Below are positions 1 through 11,145 of a stretch of DNA of 64,000 nucleotides, piece after piece. Within the stretch, counting starts at the first letter, position 1. Each line of letters begins with the position of its first letter. Under the pieces are notes generated by a model. It was not told where the DNA came from, did no database searches, and saw only the letters and a list, made by a program, of their open reading frames with translations. The translations under genes were made by a program, and so were the position numbers. Source of the DNA: Verrucomicrobiota bacterium (GTDB lineage Bacteria; Verrucomicrobiota; Verrucomicrobiia; Verrucomicrobiales; Akkermansiaceae); the NCBI GenBank assembly GCA_037133375.1, contig JBAXOF010000001.1, positions 4,724-68,723 on the forward strand, in the 5' to 3' direction.

Positions 1-623
1 GGGCAACTCACCGGGATGAAGGGTTCGGCGGTGCGCGTGCTCAGATGGTGGATTTCGCGGGCGACGAAGGTTTTGCCAGTGCCGCTTTCACCAGTGAGCA
101 GCAAGGTGACGTCGAGTTGTGCCGCCTTTTGCATTTGCTCGAATAACTCGCGCATCCGCGGGCTGTGGTTTTTTTTCAGCAAGCCGCCGTGTTTGCGGGC
201 GGCAGTGGTGGCATCAAACACCTGTGCGTTTGAGTTCTGGCGACGCAAGCGACACGCCTTCAGGATCACGCCAAACAGCCGGTCCAATTCAAACGGCTTG
301 GTCAGGTAATCATCGGCCCCGGCACGCAGTGCCCGCACTGCGGTTTCCGCGTCATTGTGGCCGGTGAGCATGATCACCGCCACTTCCGGGCGCCGTTTGC
401 GCAATCTCTCCAGCACCTGGATGCCGTCGCCATCAGGCAGGCCGTGATCCAGCACCACCGCCTTGATCTCAGCGGTGAGGAGTTGGCAGCCTTCCGCGCC
501 AGAGCCGGCCGCAACCGGTTGCCAGCCCCTGCTGCGGGCCGCCATGCTCAACAAATTCCTGATGGATTCGTCGTCGTCGACGAGTAAAAGGTTAGGTGGG
601 ACTTGGGGACTGGACATGTGCAT
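1..623 (-). CDS. Sigma54-dependent (NtrC-family) response regulator, REC + start of AAA+ domain; 3' end runs off the window
   Basis: Manual translation of the minus strand from ATG at 623 (or 617): MHMSSPQVPPNLLLVDDDESIRNLL...VVLDHGLPDGDG...MLTG...YLTKPF (REC), then LDVTLLLTGESGTGKTFVAREIH (Walker A typical of bacterial enhancer-binding proteins). Absent from the ORF track because it has no stop in the window. Confidence 0.9.
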   Translation of the reverse strand, partial: MHMSSPQVPPNLLLVDDDESIRNLLSMAARSRGWQPVAAGSGAEGCQLLTAEIKAVVLDHGLPDGDGIQVLERLRKRRPEVAVIMLTGHNDAETAVRALRAGADDYLTKPFELDRLFGVILKACRLRRQNSNAQVFDATTAARKHGGLLKKNHSPRMRELFEQMQKAAQLDVTLLLTGESGTGKTFVAREIHHLSTRTAEPFIPVSC

Positions 624-760
624 CAAGCCGCTACTTCCAGTGACGGCACCGGAAATAAGTCCCATGCCACCGCATACGGCAACAAAAATCGTCTGAAAAA
701 ATGCGATCAAACCCCTGCTAACCCGCTGGAAATGGTGGTTATTATCCCTATTGCTGGGAT

Positions 761-1441
761 TTAACGCAGAATTTTGGCAAAGTCGCCACGCTGACGGCGC
801 GGACTCCTCTGACTGCTCGGATATTCAACCGGCACCCAACCGCGTTCCTTGAGGTTTTGTCTCCTCACTGAATACCACCATTGGGTTCGCACCGTCGCAA
901 ATTGCACCACCGCCACTGCCAACCCCATCAGCGCCACCCCCCACCAGATGGCTGGCAGCGCTCCTCGATCAATCAAGACGATGAGCGCAATGCCAGCCAA
1001 CCCGTGTATTAAGGCCGTGAAAACCCACACCTTCGTCGCCCACCTCCGACTCTTGCTGAGCAGGGTGAACTCGTAACTCAAGCCAACTACGACGCCAATG
1101 AGGCCACACCACCCTATCATCACCCGCAGGGAAAGGGACTCTGGGACTGATCCCATCACTTGCAGAAAAGTCGTCGAGTATCTCAGCCACGGCAGACCCA
1201 TGCAAATATCTAACAAGCTAACCATAAAGGGCCAGATGATGACAAACTTCTGCTTTGCGCGAAGCTGGAGCAGGGACATATCGTGGGGATCCATAACGGT
1301 GGCAAGGGATGTAACTGATATCCTATTGCAGACGCCGTGCCAGAGCGTTACGATTCGATATATCCCATATACTACAAGGGATTCTGCGGGTTGAAGCTGG
1401 GGTTGGAGCACACTTCCATCCTGCAATTCCTGCATCATCAT
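761..1441 (-). CDS. Hypothetical membrane protein (about 4 TM segments)
   Basis: 226-aa ORF with four hydrophobic stretches ([62 protein letters not shown]). Starts 19 nt after the kinase stop. Lower GC than neighbours (25/60 at 1201-1260). No family recognised; start uncertain. Confidence 0.5.
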
Positions 1442-1459: not shown

Positions 1460-2584
1460 TCAGGGCATTGGGACACGCGGCAAAACGCACCAGAAGGTGC
1501 TGCCTTGGCCCGGTTCACTCGTCACACCGATGCTGCCGCCCTGCGCCTCGACCGCCAATTTGCAGAAGGCCAGGCCCAGGCCAGTGGACCCAAGCCGACT
1601 GGCCATCGGCTGATCGAATACTCCGAATTTTTCAAAAATCCGCGCATGATAGGGAGCTGGGATTCCGGGGCCATGGTCGCGGAGCCAGATGCGCACGCCA
1701 CCGGGGTCGGGAGCTGCGCCGAGTTCGATCTCACGCTCAGCCGGCGAATACTTGAACGCGTTGGCGAGCAGATTGGCGACGATGCGCACGCTCAACTCCA
1801 CATCACAGAACAGTTCCGGACAATCCCCGGCAAGTCGTTGGACAATGCGGCAGCCACTGGCCGGATCCAGCGTCTGGGCGCGGGCCGTGAGAAAGATTTC
1901 CGCAACCGGCACTGCCACCTGATGCAGTGGGATGTCCGTGGATTCCATGCGGCTGATATCCACCACTGTGGAAACCATCCGGCCGAGACGGCGCGCGTTC
2001 TGGATGGCGGTGAAGAGGCTGCTCTGGTCATCCGCATGCAGTGGGTCTCCGGCCGCATTGCCATGGATGAGTTCAAGGTGGCCGCAAATCACCTGCAAGG
2101 GGGTGCGCATGTCATGCACCAGCATGTGGGTGAGTCTGTCACGCTGGTGCGCGAGGAGTTGCAATCGCGCGTGCTCTTGTGCCAGTTTGATATAGGCCGC
2201 CCGCAACGCCAGATGGGTGCGGACGCGGGCTAACACCTCGACTTCACGGAAGGGTTTGACAATGTAGTCCACGCCGCCGCAGGCGAATCCCGCAGTGATG
2301 TCCGCCGCCGCGGAAAGGGCACTGATGAAAAGCACCGGAATTTGATAGAGGCGCTCATCCGCCTTGAGGCGGCGGCACACTTCATACCCATCCATGCCCG
2401 GCATGCGCACGTCCAACAGCACCAGCGCGGGCGGTTCGGCGCGGGCCGCAGCGAGCGCCAGCTCGCCGTGTGGAAAGGCCCGCACGGCCCAGCCGGCTTC
2501 GCTCAGCATCGCCCCGAGCACATTGAGGTTCTCAGGCTCGTCATCGACGATCATGAGGGTGGCTGGCTTGGCATCGAGGTTCAT
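1460..2584 (-). CDS. Hybrid response regulator/histidine kinase (REC-HisKA-HATPase)
   Basis: [10 protein letters not shown]...[11 protein letters not shown]...YIVKPF (REC); H-box LVHDMRTPL; N-box NLLANAFKY; G boxes DHGPGI and [14 protein letters not shown] overlap with the upstream gene at 2581-2584. Confidence 0.93.
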
Positions 2585-5500
2585 ACGCGGGCTCCTTTCG
2601 CCGCGTCCAGTAACCGGCGCAGGCTTGCATAATCGTAAATATCCAACAGCAGTCCCAAGCCGGTGGCCACTTCGCCATGGGCGGTGGCAAGCGCCGCGAA
2701 CAACTGGCGCAACTGCTGGGTGTCACCGCGCAGCAGTGCCTGATCGAACTGGCGCAACTGCTCCGTGGAAAGGCTGTTCAAGGTGGCGGCATCGAGCGGG
2801 GCCGACGGAATGACCGGGTGCGGTTCTGCGGCCTCATACGTGTAGCGGACTCCGGCGAGGCGGGCGATTTCTGCCAACAGTTGTTCCCGCCGCACGGGTT
2901 TGGCGATATAGCCATCCGCGCCGGCGGCGCGTGCCAAGTCACTTTCCTTGTGGAACCCGGAAGCCGACACCATCAGCACGGGAAGCTCGCTCCCACCCGG
3001 AAGCGCCCGCAAATGTGGGAGCGCCTCGTAACCGCTCATCTCCGGCATGTTCTTGTCAATGAGCACCAGCGTCACATCCTTGGCTTGGCGCAAGCGCTCC
3101 AAGGCCTGCGCCGCGCTGGCCACGGTTTCCACCGTGAATCCGACCTCCGTGAGCATGGCCTCGAGCATGGTGCGGTTTTCGATTTCATCATCCACCACCA
3201 ACAGCCGGCAGGCGGGCTGATCCGTGGCCAACCCCAGCACCTTGTTCTGGTCAAGCAACTCCAGCCAGGTGCCGCCGACGGGGTAGGTGTTGAAAGTGAA
3301 ACGGAAGCGACTGCCCCTGCCGAGACCACTGGTCACGGTGATTCCGCCGCCAAGGGCCTGGGCGTAGCGGCGGCTCAGCGGCAAGCCCAAGCCGGTGCCT
3401 GTGCCACTCTTGAGGCCATGTTCCGCCTGCTCGAAGGTCTGGAAGATACGCTCTAGATCGTCCTCGCCAATGCCACAACCGCTATCCTCGACATCCACCG
3501 CGAGGGGGAGGCCATCCGCCATGGAGCTTTCCAGCAGTGAGGCGGACACGCGCACCCCGCCCTGGGCCGTGAACTTGACCGCGTTGCCTATCAGGTTGAC
3601 AATGATTTGCTGCACCTTGGTGGGGTCGGCGTTGATGAATTGCGGGACGTCTGGATCCCAGGTCACCTCCAGCGTCGTGCCTTGTTTAATTATCAACTCG
3701 AGAAACATCAGCCGGATGTCCTCAAGCATCTGGTGAAAATTGAAATCCCGGGGTGACATCACGAGCGCCTGGCCTTCAGCACGTGCCATGTCCAAGAGGT
3801 CCGTGGAAAGCCTCAGGAGATGCTCGGCACTGCGGGTGATGGGCTTGAGCCGGTTGCGCGAGAGGCAGCCCTGGCATTCGCGTTCCATGATCTGGGCATA
3901 ACCCAGGACGGAATTGAGGGGGGTGCGGATTTCATGGGACATGTTCGCCAGAAACAGACCTTTGGCTTCGGCGGCAACCTGCGCCGTGTCGCGCGCCTTG
4001 AGCAAGCTGCCTTGCAGCTCGCTGGACTTGTGCTCCATGGTGCTGCGGGTATGAAAATTGGCATAGAGTTCGGCCAGCACGCGCAACAGGGCGATCTCCT
4101 CAGTCTGCCAGATGCGCAGCTGCCGCACGGCATTGAAGCCGACGTGGCCCAAACATCTCCCATTCTGCATGAGTGGCAGAGTGATGGTCGAGCGGACTTC
4201 CCGTGGGTCTAGCAACTGGCGCAGAGGATCGTCTTGCGGCAAGGCCTCCACGTCGGGGATGTCTACCACCTCGCCGCGCTGATGGGTGGCCACGCGGTCC
4301 TTAATGAGCGCAATGGGCAGTGCCTGTAGCTTGGCCATGCGTGAGGGGATGCCGGGACCGCACCACTCATGGGTGCTGGACATGAGCCCGGCCGCAAAGT
4401 CATACACCACCAGATAGGCCCGGTCCACCGCCACCAGCTGTCCTATCGTTGCTAGAGACTTGTTAATCGCGATATCCCGGAGGTTCAGCGGCACGTTGAT
4501 AAACTCGGTGGCCAGACTCAGCAGCGTGCTTTGAATCGCCGCCAGCCTTGCCATCTCGGTATCCATGCGATTCCGCTCGGTGATGTCCCAGTTGGTGCCA
4601 ATCATGTGCAAGGGCTTGCCGGAGGCATCACGCTCCACCACCGCAAACCCACGAATGTGGTGAATCGTCCCGTCCGGCCACACCACGCGGAATTCAGTGT
4701 CGAAATCCTTGGAGCTATGCAACGCCAACTGGATTTCCGCGTCACCGCGTTGGCGGTCGTCCGGGTGCAGCCCGGCCTGCCAAGCCTCGTAAGCCCCGCC
4801 GAATTGCGCCTGCGTGATGCCGTAGAGGCGGTACATTTGCTCATCCCAGGCCAACCGGTTATTGACCACGTCATAGTCCCAAATGCCCACGCCGCCAGCC
4901 CGCGCCGCCAGCGACAAGCGGTTGGAGGTCTCATTCAAATCCTTGGTCATGTGTCCCGCCAGCGTGCGGGCATTGCTGCGGGTGCTGACTAACGAGAGAA
5001 TCAAGCCCGCCAGCAGCAGGCTGATGCTGCCACCGGTGCCCATGGTCAACCAGACTCTGCTCTGCAACATGGCCTTTTCCGCGCCGTCAGCCTTGGCAAT
5101 ACTCAACAGCCATTGGTGCCCTCCGGAATAGATACTCACTTGTTGGGTCCGATGATGGGCCAGTGGGGAGGGATCGTTGCCGCTTTGCTCACTGTCATAA
5201 AGCAGGGTGGCCAGGGTGGCCGTCGCGCCATCATGGATTTGCAGGTGGAGGTGTTTCTGCCCCACCAAGCGGCCTTGTTCCAGAACGCCCGCCATCAGGT
5301 CGTTCATCCGATACGGACTGTAAACCCAGCCGATGAGGGCGGCGCGACGCTCGGCCAGCGTGGCGCGAGCGGACCCTATCTGATAGACAGGCGCATACAT
5401 CAAAGTGCCGGCCTGAACGTCTTGGCCGTTTTCCTGCACCAGCTTGACCTTGCCGGAAAGGGTGGCCTGATCCTCATCCCGAGCCGTTTCCATGGCCGCG

Positions 5501-6072
5501 CGGCGCACCGGTTCGGTGAACATGTCGTAGCCGAAGGCGCGCAGGTTTCTGCCGGCAAAGGGTTCGAGGAAGGCAATCGAGGTGTAACTTTCCCGCGCCC
5601 CCTCCGGCCACACCCGATACTCGGGAAAGCCCTCGGCACGCACTGCTCGCACATGTGCGGCCAGTTGCTGGCTGGGCACCCACATGGCAAAGCCGAGACC
5701 TTGGATGCCGGGTAGCTTCTGGTTGACCTTCTGGCGTTCGACGAATTCGTGCCACTCCACACGGCTGACGCCATCCGTGTCGGCGAAGAATGCCGCAGCG
5801 CTGCGCAGGATCTGCTCGTGGGCGCGGAGCCGCTCCTCTATCCTGGTTTGAATTCTCTGACAATCGGAATCAAACGCCAGTCTGGCGTCCGTCTCCCCGT
5901 CGAATTTAAACGTCTGCGCCAGCCAACCCGTAACAACCAGCCCCCCACCTAACATTAGCAAGATCAGCCACACCCAGCCCCCCCCACCGCGCAGGATACC
6001 GCTGCCATGCGGGTGCGGCCGGAGTTCTGCCGCCGCGCAATCCACGGCGTCTTGGGTTGAGGCAGAATTCAT
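2581..6072 (-). CDS. Membrane hybrid sensor histidine kinase (CHASE-PAS-GAF-HisKA-HATPase-REC)
   Basis: TM, then CHASE (IQGLGF...EPFAGRNLRAFGYDMFTEPVRRAAM), TM, PAS (GIWDYD...LHPDDR...GTNWDITERNR), GAF (THEWCG), H-box FLANMSHEIRTPLN, NLIGNAVKFT, DSGCGI, GTGLGL and C-terminal REC (LLVVDD, LIDKNMP, KPV). Confidence 0.95.
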   Translation of the reverse strand: MNSASTQDAVDCAAAELRPHPHGSGILRGGGGWVWLILLMLGGGLVVTGWLAQTFKFDGETDARLAFDSDCQRIQTRIEERLRAHEQILRSAAAFFADTDGVSRVEWHEFVERQKVNQKLPGIQGLGFAMWVPSQQLAAHVRAVRAEGFPEYRVWPEGARESYTSIAFLEPFAGRNLRAFGYDMFTEPVRRAAMETARDEDQATLSGKVKLVQENGQDVQAGTLMYAPVYQIGSARATLAERRAALIGWVYSPYRMNDLMAGVLEQGRLVGQKHLHLQIHDGATATLATLLYDSEQSGNDPSPLAHHRTQQVSIYSGGHQWLLSIAKADGAEKAMLQSRVWLTMGTGGSISLLLAGLILSLVSTRSNARTLAGHMTKDLNETSNRLSLAARAGGVGIWDYDVVNNRLAWDEQMYRLYGITQAQFGGAYEAWQAGLHPDDRQRGDAEIQLALHSSKDFDTEFRVVWPDGTIHHIRGFAVVERDASGKPLHMIGTNWDITERNRMDTEMARLAAIQSTLLSLATEFINVPLNLRDIAINKSLATIGQLVAVDRAYLVVYDFAAGLMSSTHEWCGPGIPSRMAKLQALPIALIKDRVATHQRGEVVDIPDVEALPQDDPLRQLLDPREVRSTITLPLMQNGRCLGHVGFNAVRQLRIWQTEEIALLRVLAELYANFHTRSTMEHKSSELQGSLLKARDTAQVAAEAKGLFLANMSHEIRTPLNSVLGYAQIMERECQGCLSRNRLKPITRSAEHLLRLSTDLLDMARAEGQALVMSPRDFNFHQMLEDIRLMFLELIIKQGTTLEVTWDPDVPQFINADPTKVQQIIVNLIGNAVKFTAQGGVRVSASLLESSMADGLPLAVDVEDSGCGIGEDDLERIFQTFEQAEHGLKSGTGTGLGLPLSRRYAQALGGGITVTSGLGRGSRFRFTFNTYPVGGTWLELLDQNKVLGLATDQPACRLLVVDDEIENRTMLEAMLTEVGFTVETVASAAQALERLRQAKDVTLVLIDKNMPEMSGYEALPHLRALPGGSELPVLMVSASGFHKESDLARAAGADGYIAKPVRREQLLAEIARLAGVRYTYEAAEPHPVIPSAPLDAATLNSLSTEQLRQFDQALLRGDTQQLRQLFAALATAHGEVATGLGLLLDIYDYASLRRLLDAAKGARV

Positions 6073-7241
6073 AGGTCAGGCCGCTCCGGCTGGCAATGGG
6101 ATGTTTCCATGGGAAAAGAGACGTTGATCACAAGCCCGCGCCGCACGCCGTTGCGCACCGTGACGCTGCCGTGGAAAAGCCGGATGATGCGGCTGGCCAA
6201 GGCCGCTCCCAAACCAAAATCGCCCGCTTCCTTGAGCAGCTCGCGTTGGCCGCCGATCTCAAAAAATGTCTCAAGCGCGGCGGTGGAGAGGGCGGCACCT
6301 TGGGTGATAATATCCACACTCGCCTGCCCGGCAGCGACCTGCGCCACCAGCGTGAGAGGTTCTCCCGCTGCCACACAATGGGTGGCCGTCAGCAGCAGCT
6401 CGGTGAAGGCGCGCACGAGCAATCCCGGCTCCCCGCTGATGATCAGCTCATCCGCCGCGTCGAGGGCGGCGTTGATTGTGTTAGAGCGAGTCTGGCTGGC
6501 CACCACGTCCAACGCGCTCTGGAGCACCTGTCTCAAGCGCACCGGTGTGCCTGTAAACCCCTCCTGCTCCACGTTGATGTGTGCAAGGGTCTGCGCGTCA
6601 TTCATCAGTTTCTCGATGCGCTGGCAGGACGCGTCGAAGTCCGGGCGCAACGCGTAATGCTCCGAGGCGGGCGGCAAGTCAGCGAACAAGAGCTCTGCGA
6701 TGCCGATGATGCCATTGAGCGGCGTGCGCATCTCGTGGGACAACACGTTGAGCCACTGGCTTTTGGCCTCATCCCAGATTTGCAGACGGCGGTGCGCCTC
6801 GGTCAGATCCAGCATGCGCTGCGCCACGAGTTCTTCCAGATGGAGTTGGAACCACCGTAAATGCAAATGGGTGTCGATGCGCGCCAATACCTCAGCCTCT
6901 GCAAAGGGCTTGGTCACATAATCCACGCCCCCGGCATCAAAGGCTCGCAGCTTGTCGGATGGCTCGGTAAAGGCACTCAGAAAAATGATGGGGATCCCGC
7001 GCAGTTGCTCGTCCGCCTTGAAACGGCGGCACGCCTCGTAGCCATCCATGCCCGGCATCTGGATATCCAGCAGCACCAGGTCAGGCAATTCAGCATGGGC
7101 GGCAGCCAGTGCCAGCGCACCGCCCGGCAGGGCCCGCACGCCCAATCCCGCCCCGCTCAACATCTCGCCCAGCACGTTGAGGTTGCCGGGTTCGTCATCG
7201 ACGATCATAATGGTGGCTCGTGGAGCGCCAGGAGTTTTCAT
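6069..7241 (-). CDS. REC-HisKA protein with degenerate HATPase domain
   Basis: REC intact (IMIVDDEPGN, LLDIQMPGMDG, YVTKPF) and H-box intact (LSHEMRTPLNG). N-box reads AFTELLLTATH and G1 reads DIITQGAAL. Start at 7241 gives an ATGA overlap with the upstream gene. Confidence 0.85.
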   Translation of the reverse strand: MKTPGAPRATIMIVDDEPGNLNVLGEMLSGAGLGVRALPGGALALAAAHAELPDLVLLDIQMPGMDGYEACRRFKADEQLRGIPIIFLSAFTEPSDKLRAFDAGGVDYVTKPFAEAEVLARIDTHLHLRWFQLHLEELVAQRMLDLTEAHRRLQIWDEAKSQWLNVLSHEMRTPLNGIIGIAELLFADLPPASEHYALRPDFDASCQRIEKLMNDAQTLAHINVEQEGFTGTPVRLRQVLQSALDVVASQTRSNTINAALDAADELIISGEPGLLVRAFTELLLTATHCVAAGEPLTLVAQVAAGQASVDIITQGAALSTAALETFFEIGGQRELLKEAGDFGLGAALASRIIRLFHGSVTVRNGVRRGLVINVSFPMETSHCQPERPDL

Positions 7242-9640
7242 AAGGTGGTTCTCGGGATTGACTCTAACATACAACGCAAGCGCTCATAATTGTAAGCATC
7301 CACCAGCATGCGCAGCCCGGCGGCCAGCCCGGCATGCTCGCTCTCAATCCCTGCTAGCAAGTCCCGCAATTGTTGGATATCGCCGCGGTGCAGCGCTTGC
7401 GCGAGAAGTTGGCACGTTGCGTCCGGCAGACAGGTCAAGGCTGCGGCATCCAGCAGGGGCGGCGGCGGAGGCGCGGCTTGGTCCGTATCGTGAACGTAAC
7501 GGACCCCGACGACGCGACCGATTTCCGCGAGCAACTGTTCGCGGCGCACGGGTTTGGAGATATAGCCATCCGCGCCGATGGCCAGCGCCTGGGCCTTCTC
7601 GTCGGCAACCCCGGAGGCGGTCACCACCAGCACCGGCAAATTGCGCCCGCCAGGCAGTTGGCGCAACAGGGTAATGGCTGCGTAACCATCCATCCCCGGC
7701 AGCCGCTTGTCCATGAGCACCAGATCCAGATCATTGGCCCGCTGCAACCGATCAAGGGCTTGCGCCGCGCTGTCCACGGCTTCGACGCTGAATCCGGCCG
7801 CCATGAGCATGACGCTGAGCATGTCGCGATTATCGGGTTCATCATCGACCACCAACACCCGGCACGCCCGCTCATCGGCCGCCAAGCGCAGCACGCCTCC
7901 CCAGTGGAGCGGGGCGACAACTCCGCCACTTGCCACGGCGGCATGGAACGTGAAACGGAAACGACTGCCCGTGCCGGGGTGACTGGTGACGGAGACCTCA
8001 CCGCCCAGGGCCCGTGCGTAACGCCGGCTCAAGGGCAGGCCCAAGCCGGTGCCCTTGTCACTCCGCGTGCCGTGTTGGGCTTGCTCGAAGATATCGAAAA
8101 TGCGCTCCAGTTCGTCGTTGTCGATGCCCCGCCCCGTATCCTCGACGTCCACGGTCAGCGTGAGATCTTTCTTCACAGAGCAAGGCACCATGGCGGCGGA
8201 CACCCGCACGCCGCCCTTGACGGTGAACTTGAAGGCATTACCGACGAGGTTGACGAGGATTTGTCGCACCTTGCCGGGATCGCTGTGAATGAATTGCGGA
8301 ACATCCGGGGCATGCGCCAGCTCCAGCGTTAACTCCTGCGCCTGCGCGTGCCGCACAAACATCAGCCGCACATCCTCCAGCACCTGATAGAAATCAAAGT
8401 CGCAGGGTGCCAGCGGGGGCACGCACGCGTCGCTGCGCACCAACTCCAGCAGATCGGTGAGCAATTCGAGCAGATGCTCGCCGCTGCGGCTGATCGCGCT
8501 GAGCCGCGTGCTGTTCGGGCACTCCCGGCACTCGCGTTGCATGATCTGCGCGTAGCCGAGCACGGCGTTGAGGGGCGTGCGGATTTCGTGCGACATGTTA
8601 GCCAGGAACAAGCTTTTGGCCATGGCTGCGGCTTGCGCCGCATCGCGGGCTTGAATCAAATTTTGCTGGAGGTTGCGGGCTTCGCACTCATTGACGCTGC
8701 GGGCTTCAAGGTTGGCGAACAATTCGGCCAGCACACGCAGCAAGGCCACCTCCTCGGTGCGCCACACCCGCTCCTCGCGCACCGCGTCAAAGCCCACAAA
8801 GCCAAGACATGCCTGCCCCTGCATTAGCGGCAGGGTGATGAGTGAGCGAATTCCCTGCGGTTCGAGTATTTGGCGCAGAACCCCCGTGCTCGGCAAGGCA
8901 GCGACGCTGGGGATATGCATGGCCTCGCCCTGGCGGTGCGCCGTCACCCAAGCCGGCAGCAGTGCGTTGGGAATGGCTTGCAGATTGTCGATCTCCGGGG
9001 CGATGTCCGGGCCACACCATTCGTGGGTGTTGTGCATGATATCGGCGGCGAAGTCGTAGGCGAACAGATAGGCTCGATCCGCTTCAATGAGCCGCCCCAT
9101 GGTGGCCAGCGACTCGTTAATCGCGGTGTCCTGGTGCTCCGTCGGCACGTTGATAAAATGGGTGGCCAGATGCATCAACTCGCGCTGAATCAGCGAGAGT
9201 CTGGCCAGTTCGGCCTCGGCACGCTTGCGCTTGGTGATGGCCTCCTTCTCCTCGGTCAGGTTTTTGCAGACCCCAAAGAGGCAGTTTGCCCCATTCCACT
9301 TGCCAAACCACACGCGGGTCTCAACCGGCACCAACTCCCCGTCCTTGCGCGCCAATGGCAGCGGGCAACTTTCCCGCTCGCCGCGCAACATCGCACCAAA
9401 AATCGCCTCAGCTTCCTGCCGCATGTCCGCCGGATGCACGTCGAGCAGGTGCATATCCCGGATTTCGTCGGACGTGTAGCCGAGGCTGCGGGTGACGGCG
9501 GCGTTGGCGAATAGCACCCGGCCCTCGGGCGTGCTCACCAAGAGCATGTCGGTAATAGTCTCGAAAAACGTGCGGAAATTCGCCTCACTCTCGCGCAGGG
9601 CCTCCTCGGTGTGACTGTTCAATGGGTTTTGACTGGTCAT
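7238..9640 (-). CDS. Cytoplasmic hybrid sensor histidine kinase (PAS-GAF-HisKA-HATPase-REC)
   Basis: From MTSQNPL (ATG 9640): PAS (ESEANFRTFFE...HPADMR), GAF (THEWCG), H-box FLANMSHEIRTPLN, NLVGNAFKFT, DTGRGI, GTGLGL, REC (VLVVDD, LMDKRLP, KPV). Paralogue of the C-terminal part of 2581-6072. Confidence 0.93.
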   Translation of the reverse strand: MTSQNPLNSHTEEALRESEANFRTFFETITDMLLVSTPEGRVLFANAAVTRSLGYTSDEIRDMHLLDVHPADMRQEAEAIFGAMLRGERESCPLPLARKDGELVPVETRVWFGKWNGANCLFGVCKNLTEEKEAITKRKRAEAELARLSLIQRELMHLATHFINVPTEHQDTAINESLATMGRLIEADRAYLFAYDFAADIMHNTHEWCGPDIAPEIDNLQAIPNALLPAWVTAHRQGEAMHIPSVAALPSTGVLRQILEPQGIRSLITLPLMQGQACLGFVGFDAVREERVWRTEEVALLRVLAELFANLEARSVNECEARNLQQNLIQARDAAQAAAMAKSLFLANMSHEIRTPLNAVLGYAQIMQRECRECPNSTRLSAISRSGEHLLELLTDLLELVRSDACVPPLAPCDFDFYQVLEDVRLMFVRHAQAQELTLELAHAPDVPQFIHSDPGKVRQILVNLVGNAFKFTVKGGVRVSAAMVPCSVKKDLTLTVDVEDTGRGIDNDELERIFDIFEQAQHGTRSDKGTGLGLPLSRRYARALGGEVSVTSHPGTGSRFRFTFHAAVASGGVVAPLHWGGVLRLAADERACRVLVVDDEPDNRDMLSVMLMAAGFSVEAVDSAAQALDRLQRANDLDLVLMDKRLPGMDGYAAITLLRQLPGGRNLPVLVVTASGVADEKAQALAIGADGYISKPVRREQLLAEIGRVVGVRYVHDTDQAAPPPPPLLDAAALTCLPDATCQLLAQALHRGDIQQLRDLLAGIESEHAGLAAGLRMLVDAYNYERLRCMLESIPRTTL

Positions 9641-9789
9641 AATCAGCTCGTCATTTGCCCTCTGGGCGTGCCGGCACTCTTGCCCGCATCCGTGTGCTGC
9701 GCAACACCTAATGCGGCATGGGCAAGTCCATGGGGCGTGATTCCAGTGCTTCCCATTTCCAAAACAGCGGCTAGAGTGGGCGCCCGCAC

Positions 9790-11145
9790 ATGACTGACAT
9801 GAACGCATCCCCGATCCGGCGCATCTCCGGACTCACGGCCACCTCCATCGTGGTGGCCAATATCATTGGCGTTGGTATTTTCACCAGCCTCGGGTTTCAG
9901 GTCGGCGGCTTGCCCAGCGGCTTTGCCATCCTGATGCTGTGGTTGGTCGGCGGCGTGTGCGCTATGTGCGGCGCGCTCTGTTATGCGGAATTGGCCACCG
10001 CCTTGCCAAGGTCGGGTGGCGAGTATCATTTCCTGGGCACTATCTATCATCCGTCACTGGGCTTCATGGCCGGCTGGATTTCCGCCACCGCGGGCTTTGC
10101 GGCACCGGTGGCCTTATACGCGATGGCCTTCGGCACCTACCTCCACGGCGTCGTGCCCGGCGTGCCGCCGCTGGCGGCCTCGCTGGCGGTAGTGTGGCTG
10201 GCCACGCTGCTGTTGTTAGGCGAGGTCAAGCTGGTTAGCGCGTTTCAAAACGCCTCAACGCTGCTGAAGGTGGCTTTAATAATCGGGTTGATTCTAGCGG
10301 GATGTTTCATGGGGGAGGTGCAACCGGTGTCGTTTTTGCCGCAAGCGGGTGATGGCGGGCGGATTGTCAGCGCGCCCTTTGCGGTGAGTCTGGTGTATGT
10401 GATGTTCGCCTATTCGGGGTGGAATGCTTCGACCTATATTGCGGGCGAAGTGCGCAATCCGTCACGCACGCTGCCGCTTTCGGTGGGACTCGGCACCTTG
10501 TTAGTGATGGTTTTGTATCTGGCGGTTAACGCGGTGTTCCTGCGCAGCACCCCGATGGCGGAGATGAAGGAAATGCCCGACAAGGTGGCGGTCGCCCTAA
10601 CTGTCGGACCGCATTTGTTCGGCGCGGCCGGGACCCGCATCATGGCGGGCCTGATTTGCGTGGGACTCATATCGACCATCAGTGCCTTGATGTGGATCGG
10701 CCCGCAGGTGACGGTGGTCATGGGGGAGGATCTGCGCGGCTTGCGCTGGTTTGCCGCCAGAAACCGGCGTGGCACCCCGGTGCGTGCCACCTTGGCCCAA
10801 TTCGGGTTGGTCAACTTGTTTTTGCTCACCTCGAGCTTTGATCAAGTGGTCAACAGCGCCATGTTCATCCTGCAACTGTGCTCGTTTCTAACGGTCATGG
10901 GGGTGTTCGTGCTGCGCTATAGGCGGCCGGACTTGAAGCGACCCTATCGGACCTGGGGCTACCCGGTCACGCCGCTGGTGTTTCTCGCAGTGTCGGTATG
11001 GATGCTCTGGCACCTGCTGTGCTCCAGACCCACCGAGTCGCTCATCGGTTTAGGCACCGCCGCCGTCGGCCTCATCCTCTACTTGCTTTCCGCGAGAAAT
11101 GCTCCAACATCCAGCCCAACCCCTACCCACCATGAGCCGAATTAA
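9790..11145 (+). CDS. APC-family amino acid permease
   Basis: About 12 TM; TM1 motif VANIIGVGIF, LCYAELATALPRSGGEY, TM6 FAYSGWNAS, C-terminal RRPDLKRPYRTWGYP. Confidence 0.93.
   Translation: MTDMNASPIRRISGLTATSIVVANIIGVGIFTSLGFQVGGLPSGFAILMLWLVGGVCAMCGALCYAELATALPRSGGEYHFLGTIYHPSLGFMAGWISATAGFAAPVALYAMAFGTYLHGVVPGVPPLAASLAVVWLATLLLLGEVKLVSAFQNASTLLKVALIIGLILAGCFMGEVQPVSFLPQAGDGGRIVSAPFAVSLVYVMFAYSGWNASTYIAGEVRNPSRTLPLSVGLGTLLVMVLYLAVNAVFLRSTPMAEMKEMPDKVAVALTVGPHLFGAAGTRIMAGLICVGLISTISALMWIGPQVTVVMGEDLRGLRWFAARNRRGTPVRATLAQFGLVNLFLLTSSFDQVVNSAMFILQLCSFLTVMGVFVLRYRRPDLKRPYRTWGYPVTPLVFLAVSVWMLWHLLCSRPTESLIGLGTAAVGLILYLLSARNAPTSSPTPTHHEPN

Follow-up and report, generated by a model that had tools for sequence, protein, structure and literature searches.

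What is left for a histidine kinase to do once it has kept its phospho-accepting histidine but has lost the residues that use ATP? The question is raised by gene B, located at 6069..7241 on the minus strand of a 64,000-nucleotide stretch of DNA (the window; contig JBAXOF010000001.1, positions 4,724 to 68,723, assembly GCA_037133375.1) from a Verrucomicrobiota bacterium of the family Akkermansiaceae. An earlier note on this DNA had proposed its product as a ChpT-like phosphotransferase serving hybrid kinases in an operon without a histidine phosphotransfer (Hpt) domain. This reading of B as a relay protein is partly supported by our analysis. We tentatively favour, at a probability of about 0.4, the view that B is an ATP-independent H2 relay station for the hybrid kinase encoded upstream and that it is gated by its own receiver.

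To our knowledge, the route of the phosphate has not been established for many hybrid kinases that lack an Hpt domain, and the kinase-derived phosphotransferases Spo0B, ChpT and PhyT are isolated cases. Hybrids are put at about a fifth of all histidine kinases in the accessible part of one source (PMC6969517). If B is a gated relay or a phosphatase, a bifunctional kinase could be split into specialised paralogues that work on one input, and B would be a concrete partner candidate for the whole class of Hpt-less hybrid kinases.

Domains of B and the residues of its ATP site

Translation of the open reading frame (ORF) and Pfam searches defined the features below, in which DHp denotes the dimerization and histidine phosphotransfer domain and CA the catalytic and ATP-binding domain.

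6069..7241, minus strand: gene B, a REC-alphaS-DHp-pseudoCA protein of 390 residues
6876..7214, minus strand: receiver domain of B (residues 10-122) with the phospho-acceptor Asp59; Pfam Response_reg at 11-122, 94.3 bits
6567..6875, minus strand: alphaS linker and DHp of B (residues 123-225); Pfam HisKA at 159-222, 43.7 bits
6102..6566, minus strand: CA-like domain of B (Bergerat fold, residues 226-380) without ATP and Mg residues

The gene starts with the ATG at 7241 and ends with the stop codon at 6069-6071. An alternative TTG start at 7274 would add 11 residues, which have no counterpart in orthologues. The codon of the phospho-accepting His169 is at 6735-6737.

B had been described as a protein with an intact receiver aspartate and H-box and a degenerate CA domain, and this description holds. 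All four motif strings on which it was based are present: LSHEMRTPLN (residues 167-176), TELLLTAT (280-287), DIITQG (310-315) and GDFGLGA (340-346). Pfam HATPase_c (residues 273-379) reaches 27.6 bits in B against a cut-off of 26.4, whereas the same domain of the paralogue D, encoded in the same operon, scores 76.4 bits. No curated NCBIfam model exceeds its cut-off for B.

The positions of the boxes were fixed by alignment to D and to Escherichia coli EnvZ (from NC_000913.3). N343 and N347 in the N box of EnvZ correspond to Glu281 and Thr285 of B, the G1 box D373-x-G375-x-G377 to Thr313-x-Gly315-x-Ala317, and the first G2 glycine, G401, to Asp341. Both N-box asparagines, the G1 aspartate, the third G1 glycine and the first G2 glycine are replaced in B. 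As for the G1 box, which had been read as DIITQG, the loss of the aspartate is real, but the string lies three residues out of register. N347 of EnvZ is a ligand of Mg, and the G1 aspartate of kinases contacts adenine. In the case of D, the claim that all boxes are kept was confirmed by the alignment (NLLANA, DHGPGI and GSTGLGL); the spacing between the F box and G2 is the same in D and in B.

Judged by these residues, B is a protein with the build of a receiver-controlled histidine kinase (Rec-HK) in which the phospho-accepting histidine is kept and the residues for the use of ATP are gone. Its CA-like domain presumably does not bind ATP.

Conservation of B among its orthologues

In a search of 5.8 billion clusters, in which 7998 proteins were scored, we found 1089 homologues of B at E ≤ 1e-10, paralogues included. 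The 120 listed homologues are 52-100% identical, nearly all of them 360-400 residues long, and come from metagenome-assembled genomes (MAGs) labelled Verrucomicrobiota, Myxococcales, Acidobacteriota and Phycisphaerae. Of these, 50 lack a precomputed HATPase_c match by our count. Members of the clusters bear generic names only, and no published description of such a protein was found in the full-text literature, most subscription journals lying outside its scope. For the alignment we used 66 rows, namely B of the window and 65 of the other 119 listed homologues; they were chosen blind to motifs, and the rows left out were mostly short or redundant entries.

In the receiver, D15, D16, D59 and K111 are present in all 66 rows and S89 in 65, while Y108 is nearly invariant among the B orthologues. 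The DHp keeps H169 in 65 rows (one has Arg), E170 in 64 and T173 in 62. The substitutions in the former ATP site recur as well. At the position of the first N-box asparagine, 60/66 rows have Asp, two have Glu (including B of the window) and two have Asn; the second, Mg-binding asparagine is represented by Thr (62/66) and the G1 aspartate by Thr (46/66) or Phe (17/66). Elsewhere in the CA-like domain, F326 and F327 are invariant (66/66), the residues V-G-G-Q-R are kept in 60-65 of the rows, and the G2 region has D341, at the position of the first glycine, and G343 in all 66. Mean pairwise identity across the alignment is 73% for the receiver, 62% for the DHp and 51% for the CA-like domain.

The same substitutions recur in 66 orthologues, and the pattern is therefore beyond chance. 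Since the histidine is kept, the ATP residues are gone and their substitutes are conserved, the replacement residues must be under selection. Selection likewise acts on the histidine, on the Glu and Thr of its motif and on the receiver, and the comparison of the H-box with the CA domain across orthologues excludes random decay that includes the histidine. This points to the loss of the ATP site in B as a selected state and not as decay.

A search with the CA-like domain alone among 1.84 billion representatives gave 1763 matches at E ≤ 0.001, 35 at E ≤ 1e-10 and 2 at E ≤ 1e-30. The more distant full-length matches are receiver-DHp-CA-like proteins of about 380-400 residues that have the histidine, a Thr in place of the second N-box asparagine and the motif GGD(F/L)GL. 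A quick maximum-likelihood tree was built from 41 rows (B, 12 orthologues, 24 representatives of 340-470 residues, D, G and two orthologues of D), a sample that is biased because the representatives were found by their likeness to the CA-like domain of B. In this tree, the 35 rows without the Mg-binding asparagine form one side of a branch with an SH-aLRT value of 95; all 35 have the histidine, 30 have Thr at the second asparagine and 33 have Asp at the first G2 glycine. Branches within this group are long, at about 1 change per site. With its 1089 homologues, paralogues included, and 35 cluster representatives for the CA-like domain, the B family is well populated and deeply diverged, and its members are small, soluble proteins.

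We also noted several conserved residues that line the former ATP pocket of B: the invariant Asp341 (codon at 6219-6221), Asp or Glu at position 281, and a Cys/His-Cys pair. C289 is found in 65/66 rows, position 288 is Cys in 29 and His in 22, and the codons of His288-Cys289 are at 6375-6380. The pair is limited to the close subfamily; distant relatives keep Lys-Phe. The conserved Cys/His-Cys, Asp/Glu281 and Asp341 could form a candidate site for a metal or a ligand.

The operon and the hybrid kinase upstream of B

Gene B is one of seven genes, A to G, on the same strand. G and the rest of F were read from the contig beyond the window, where L164 marks our coordinates (labels of this kind denote loci or contigs). 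Domains are from Pfam.

7238..9808, minus strand: gene A, a PAS-GAF-HisKA-HATPase_c-REC hybrid kinase with a helical tail of about 90 residues (tail at 7241-7516)
2581..6072, minus strand: gene C, a CHASE-PAS-GAF-HisKA-HATPase_c-REC hybrid kinase with the same kind of tail (2584-2859)
1460..2584, minus strand: gene D, a canonical Rec-HK and paralogue of B with all boxes (HATPase_c 76.4 bits)
761..1441, minus strand: gene E, a predicted hydrophobic protein of 226 residues, start codon uncertain
1..710 in the window and running beyond its start, minus strand: gene F, an NtrC-type sigma-54 activator
L164:2856-3968, just outside the start of the window and downstream of F, minus strand: gene G, a third REC-kinase-like paralogue of 370 residues

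Stop and start codons overlap as ATGA between A and B (7238-7241), B and C (6069-6072) and C and D (2581-2584). The three overlaps suggest translational coupling and a fixed stoichiometry of the products. The ORF of F within the window is 3..710; the full gene (L164:3982-5433) encodes 484 residues with REC, Sigma54_activat, AAA lid and HTH domains. Five players had been counted in this operon, but there are more: the paralogue G, which lacks the phospho-accepting histidine, lies just outside the window. G has an intact receiver, Arg at the position of the histidine, the N box and the G1 aspartate, and a degenerate G2; its HATPase_c match scores 42 bits, and Pfam finds no HisKA in it.

To see which of these neighbours accompany B elsewhere, we scanned JGI metagenomes and a set of genomes with one per species. 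B has 14 other orthologous loci at 43-75% identity (L005-L010 and L084-L091). An A/C-type hybrid kinase lies directly upstream in 13 of them and ends at the start of B or a few bases from it. The 14th locus (L085) is cut at the start of its contig, and there a C-type hybrid follows B. As a control, we took 78 other Rec-HK-like ORFs from the same scans; 77 of these keep the Mg-binding asparagine, and at least 1.5 kb of upstream sequence is visible for 54. A hybrid kinase thus stands upstream in 13/13 B loci with visible upstream sequence versus 12/54 canonical Rec-HK loci, the 12 being mostly from one cyanobacterial group and therefore not independent. The hybrid kinase is the sole neighbour of B that is conserved across loci, and helix 1 of the B DHp is conserved across them too. 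A conserved terminal regulator adjoining the hybrid-B pair was also considered; none was found in the other loci.

Among the candidates scored, there was no match at E ≤ 1e-40 in 60 sampled genomes of the family of the window, five of them from the same genus; the distribution of the system is therefore patchy. An Akkermansiaceae MAG is the nearest relative that has it, with A and B on one contig (L005). Another contig of this MAG (L012) carries F (83%), G (78%, with Gln at the position of the histidine) and the same ParA gene, in the order NtrC-G-ParA. G thus appears to be a His-less Rec-pseudokinase that is maintained beside the sigma-54 activator. The patchy spread of the system over Verrucomicrobiota and MAGs of other phyla hints at horizontal spread.

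Two kinds of genes beside the orthologous loci deserve mention. At L010:293-2566, the gene before the hybrid kinase encodes a PAS-PAS-HisKA-REC protein of 757 residues, and at L089:962-1972 it encodes a HisKA-REC protein of 337 residues; HATPase_c is absent from both. Their predicted domains make them additional DHp modules without a CA domain in these systems. Two of the loci, moreover, adjoin genes for an IS200-like transposase (L006:8051-8446) and a phage terminase (L089:3-905), respectively, which adds to the hint of horizontal spread.

Search for an Hpt domain and the tails of the hybrid kinases

It had been stated that no Hpt is recognisable in the operon. Our searches agree: Pfam finds no Hpt in the six proteins of the window operon, nor in the tails of A and C at E ≤ 10. 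The 92%-complete assembly contains three Hpt matches over the cut-off, all within longer ORFs of 752, 1686 and 884 codons (one near the N terminus, two at C termini), and one sub-threshold match. No free-standing Hpt was seen in the assembly at this completeness, a search in which small divergent ones may be missed.

The tails of the hybrid kinases are a conserved element of their own. Across 50 homologous tails, the motifs ALRRGDIxxLR ... YDYDxL keep Gly-Asp in 50/50 and the two Tyr in 49-50/50. The only frequent histidine is present in 35/50 tails and in 13/16 of those adjoining B orthologues. The tails match no Pfam family at E ≤ 10. Aligned by hhalign to Hpt domains of distant hybrids, the tail gives a probability of 56% (E 1e-4) over a region that lies before the His helix. 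Its AlphaFold2 model has four helices at a predicted local distance difference test (pLDDT) score of 75.4. With this model, Foldseek returned nothing at E ≤ 0.001, the best match being HptB (7c1i, E 1.2), followed by AHP2, ZmHP2 and the HPt of YojN. VIA-align placed the YojN HPt second (Z 6.3, root mean square deviation (rmsd) 4.1, 65 residues aligned) and gave CheA P1 a Z of 5.2, scores that are within the noise range for helical bundles. Atlas gave rank 25 at 0.77, likewise a weak and non-significant lean to Hpt.

The idea that the tails hide a cryptic Hpt (ALRRGDxxxLR...H) was therefore dropped, as Pfam finds none, the histidine occurs in 35/50 and the fold matches are non-significant. We conclude that the tail is a conserved four-helix domain that does not function as an Hpt. 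It may derive from one, and it may serve as a docking domain for B.

Predicted fold of B and of its complex with the hybrid kinase

AlphaFold2 modelled B from the 66-row alignment at a mean pLDDT of 87.4. In the model, the receiver is followed by a continuous helix (115-187) formed by the linker and helix 1 of the DHp, by the second DHp helix (194-224) and by an alpha/beta domain (232-378), in which a loop at about 331-340 has lower confidence. The lid region (320-344) is modelled as a loop with short helices. The best six PDB rows in Foldseek are all chains of 8vc9, that is Leptospira LvrB in its receiver-phosphorylated form (E 4.1e-16 to 7.7e-15). The template modelling (TM) score of this match is low (0.32-0.35) and the rmsd is high (about 24 Å); B therefore matches LvrB in architecture but not in the arrangement of domains. 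The next matches are the kinase cores of DivL (4q20), CpxA, CusS, KdpD, ZraS, GacS and RetS (6dk7). VIA-align of the whole model is uninformative on the kinase part, as all 50 rows listed are receivers.

Compared with D and G, the alphaS helix of B has an insertion of 11 residues (residues 130-140, about 6777-6809 on the minus strand). Such an insertion is one hendecad, so the coiled-coil register would stay and the lever would be lengthened.

The receiver and tail of A (residues 645-856) were also folded with two copies of B, along with three controls. The median score was 0.47 (runs 0.45, 0.49 and 0.47) and the best control scored 0.00, which corresponds to a verdict of 'weak support'. At least 51% of contacts were common to the runs, and the partner pLDDT was at least 75. 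This mark is reached by 116/157 solved complexes and 2/215 mismatches; at ≤ 0.60, however, it was reached by only 18/157 solved complexes, and by both mismatches. The PDB contains kinase-receiver complexes, and the pass may therefore reflect likeness only.

Comparison with known systems

The closest architectural counterpart of B is LvrB. In the accessible text of the report on it (PMC13269768), LvrB is a prototype Rec-controlled kinase that binds ATP and autophosphorylates when its receiver is phosphorylated. Phosphorylation by LvrA is described there as zipping the linker into a coiled coil and freeing the CA domain that is clasped to the DHp. Like LvrB and other Rec-HKs (PhcR, CheS3), B has the order REC-alphaS-DHp-CA and a receiver with the acceptor Asp and the Ser/Tyr switch; as with lvrA-lvrB, its gene lies directly behind a hybrid kinase gene in one operon. 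Unlike LvrB, B and 35 relatives are without the N-box asparagine pair, the G1 aspartate and the first G2 glycine.

The LvrA-LvrB pair also bears on a premise of the earlier note, that hybrid kinases need a His-phosphotransfer step. This is not strictly so: according to the part available of another report, LvrA His218 phosphorylates LvrB Asp56 directly (PMC5863495). A similar case is CheA3, which is stated to phosphorylate the receiver of CheS3 and to use its own receiver as a sink (accessible part of PMC3868531).

The likeness to ChpT that had been proposed is partial, and the label does not fit. In the portion of the ChpT report at hand (PMC3433190), this protein does not autophosphorylate, shows no ATP or ADP in its crystals, lacks a receiver and has, in place of the lid, additional helix turns by which the pocket is filled. 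B resembles it in its DHp hairpin with the histidine, in a Bergerat-fold domain that is expected to be ATP-free and, as we propose for B, in serving an Hpt-less hybrid. It differs by its complete receiver of the allosteric type and by a loop that has the length of a lid and contains a conserved G2-like motif. Because of the receiver and the ATP-lid-length loop, B is not a member of the ChpT family; no sequence relationship between the two was shown in our comparisons.

PhyT (PhyP of Sphingomonas melonis) and Spo0B are kinases with a degenerate CA domain that move phosphate between receivers and can be net negative regulators, as the accessible part of PMC5898713 has it. B is likewise derived from a kinase with a degenerate catalytic domain. 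PhyT is membrane-anchored, has a DHp of the HisKA_2/HWE type with HRxxN and lacks a receiver, unlike B, which is soluble, of the HisKA type and receiver-controlled.

EnvZ N347D, to judge by a title of Dutta and Inouye from 1996, is reportedly kinase-minus and phosphatase-plus and carries out reverse phosphotransfer from OmpR. B, like this mutant, has no asparagine at the corresponding position (Thr285). The mutant has one engineered change in an otherwise intact pocket, whereas evolution has fixed at least five changes in the pocket of B. We considered whether B is a natural copy of it and rejected the idea: the Asp of the family sits at the position of N343, that of N347 holds Thr, and only the loss of an asparagine is common to both.

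DivL and RetS, finally, have a kinase fold without autokinase output and act on other kinases, and B may be compared with them in this respect. DivL has Tyr in place of the phospho-accepting histidine; B, unlike DivL, keeps its His, Glu and Thr almost invariantly.

On these grounds, B is best seen as a branch of the Rec-HKs that is kinase-dead and would act in the manner of phosphotransferases or phosphatases derived from kinases; it would fail one defining feature of Rec-HKs, the ATP-binding CA domain. The B family joins the idea of the kinase-derived phosphotransferase to the Rec-HK architecture, and the mechanism of LvrB was solved only in 2026.

B as a possible relay station

We infer the phosphotransfer steps of the relay, their direction and their gating as follows. 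B would be a Rec-controlled kinase that has permanently given up ATP and retains a dimeric DHp hairpin with its reactive histidine. A long signalling helix would carry the control of the receiver to the DHp, and a non-nucleotide CA-like domain would clasp the DHp. The upstream hybrid kinase would autophosphorylate and pass the phosphoryl group to its own receiver, which would then dock on the DHp of B and transfer the group to His169. From there it would go to a terminal receiver, the candidates in this genome being the NtrC-type F and the receivers of D and G. The same hybrid kinase probably also phosphorylates the receiver of B, as LvrA does with LvrB, and this receiver would gate access to the histidine by freeing the CA-like clamp. 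As such transfers are reversible, B could also unload the terminal receiver while the hybrid kinase is inactive. Without charging from ATP, a DHp would be left with two roles, the exchange of phosphate with receivers and help in its hydrolysis.

The NtrC-type activator, noted earlier at 1-623, had been named as the target of B. It stands as a candidate acceptor in this genome, but it is not a conserved neighbour of B elsewhere and is therefore not more than that.

We prefer the relay station since it best explains why B is strictly paired with a hybrid kinase and not with a regulator, together with the conserved surface of its DHp. Several points weigh against it. No response regulator is conserved near the hybrid-B pair across loci, where the neighbours are unrelated housekeeping and carbohydrate genes. 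The complex prediction gave no interface, so that a receiver Asp facing His169 was not shown. We know of no phosphotransferase derived from a histidine kinase that carries a receiver, and B has a complete one with the Ser/Tyr switch; a simple phosphate shuttle needs no receiver. As the histidine of a hybrid can charge the receiver of a Rec-HK directly (LvrA to LvrB, CheA3 to CheS3), an H2 is not logically needed. B also keeps an ATP-lid-length loop and a strongly conserved G2-like motif, unlike ChpT. Finally, the specificity stretch of the B DHp (H+7 to H+21) shows no greater likeness to that of the hybrid (2.7 of 15 positions identical; 13 loci) than to that of D (2.3 of 15; 3 loci). A resemblance of helix 1 of the B DHp to that of the hybrid kinase, seen by eye, was tried as an argument and given up (2.7/15, against 2.3 for D-B and 3.7 for hybrid-D).

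A wider version of the relay is, in our opinion, rather unlikely in its entirety. In it, an Hpt-less hybrid with a His-less, Hpt-like tail and a Rec-DHp-pseudoCA protein would make up an undescribed phosphorelay, in which the H2 station is a regulated dimeric module and its own receiver opens and closes the relay. The former pocket (Asp/Glu281, Cys/His288, Cys289, Asp341) would be a second input for a metal or a small ligand, and G would be a further specialised member.

Alternative explanations

Of the other explanations, the one that survives best is that B is a receiver-gated dedicated phosphatase, with the kinase D as its counterpart on a shared input. We regard it as a close rival of the relay station, somewhat less probable. 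A and C would charge the near-identical receivers of B and D. D would autophosphorylate and charge the output regulator (here F), and the His-Glu-x-x-Thr of B would dephosphorylate this regulator or take the phosphate back by reverse transfer, with the receiver of B switching the activity on or off. In this way, the two activities of a bifunctional kinase would be divided between a kinase paralogue and a phosphatase paralogue. The identities between the paralogues suggest a common input and distinct outputs: identity among B, D and G is 64-75% in the receiver (B and D 66%), versus 12-30% for the DHp (B and D 24%, B and G 12%) and 19-47% for the CA domains (B and D 21%). The same 24%, however, together with the 2.3 of 15 positions in the specificity stretch, is unexpected for two enzymes that act on one regulator. 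The conserved H169, E170 and T173 belong to the motif H169-E170-M-R-T173; His followed by Glu or Asp at +1 and Thr or Asn at +4 was reportedly defined by Willett and Kirby in 2012 as the phosphatase-competent HisKA motif. A, C and D carry it too, and it is therefore non-discriminating. The Thr of B at the position of EnvZ N347 is also in keeping with a phosphatase, as is the proposal of the LvrB authors, in the accessible part of their text, that LvrB is a phosphatase in its clasped, symmetric and unphosphorylated state (PMC13269768).

The loci speak on both sides. A D-type Rec-HK with its histidine follows B in four of them (L006, L008, L084 and L085). No D-type gene is present in the downstream sequence available for L010 (10 kb), L086 (2 kb) and L087 (5.7 kb), where the hybrid kinase is nevertheless always there; the other seven contigs end less than 1 kb from B. 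Moreover, one would expect a phosphatase to be accompanied by its substrate, whereas the loci have no conserved regulator near B.

A second alternative is that B is a non-catalytic pseudokinase, a terminal regulator of the hybrid whose DHp/CA-like module only binds and clamps or releases the hybrid or D, on the model of DivL-CckA and RetS-GacS, and whose histidine is kept for structure or docking. Such a role would account for conserved surface motifs that have no part in the use of ATP (FFEVGGQR, GGGDFGLG and C289, the latter in 65/66 rows). DivL (4q20) and RetS (6dk7) are among the structural matches, the complex prediction weakly supports binding to the C-terminal part of the hybrid, and the existence of the His-less G, conserved in the nearest relative, suggests that the family can work without the histidine. 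G, on the other hand, shows how readily the histidine is lost once it is dispensable (Arg in this genome, Gln in the nearest relative), whereas B keeps it in 65/66 orthologues and in 35/35 rows of the wider clade, along with the adjacent catalytic Glu and Thr. This makes a purely non-catalytic B distinctly unlikely.

That B is still a kinase, with an unusual pocket for ATP or another phosphodonor in which Asp/Glu281 and Asp341 serve as metal ligands for autophosphorylation, we hold to be very improbable. The lid loop has a normal length, G2 retains its GxGLG core (G343 in 66/66) and acids occupy two former pocket positions. Yet the G1 aspartate is Thr or Phe in 63/66 rows, the Mg-binding asparagine is Thr in 62/66, and the Lys/Tyr pair of the N box is replaced by Cys/His-Cys; in addition, Pfam barely recognises the domain, and it has no precomputed match in 50/120 of the listed homologues.

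The least credible explanation is a split kinase in which B gives the histidine and is charged in trans by the ATP domain of G or D in a heterodimer: the operon does contain complementary forms (B with the histidine and no ATP site, G with the N box and G1 aspartate and no histidine, D with both), but B and G are an unlikely pair because their DHp dimer surfaces are 12% identical (24% for B and D) and the G2 box of G is degenerate, and G turned up in no genome but this one and its nearest relative while D is missing from several loci.

Gene E and sigma-54 promoters

The hydrophobic protein encoded by E has no Pfam family over the cut-off, and the gene was not seen beside B orthologues. We make no claim on sigma-54 promoters in the window, which has 9 matches with one mismatch versus 7.9 expected. 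One of these matches (1328-1342, minus strand) lies inside the annotated 5′ part of the E ORF, about 35-50 bases upstream of an internal Met codon, and is at most a lead towards autoregulation of E-F-G.

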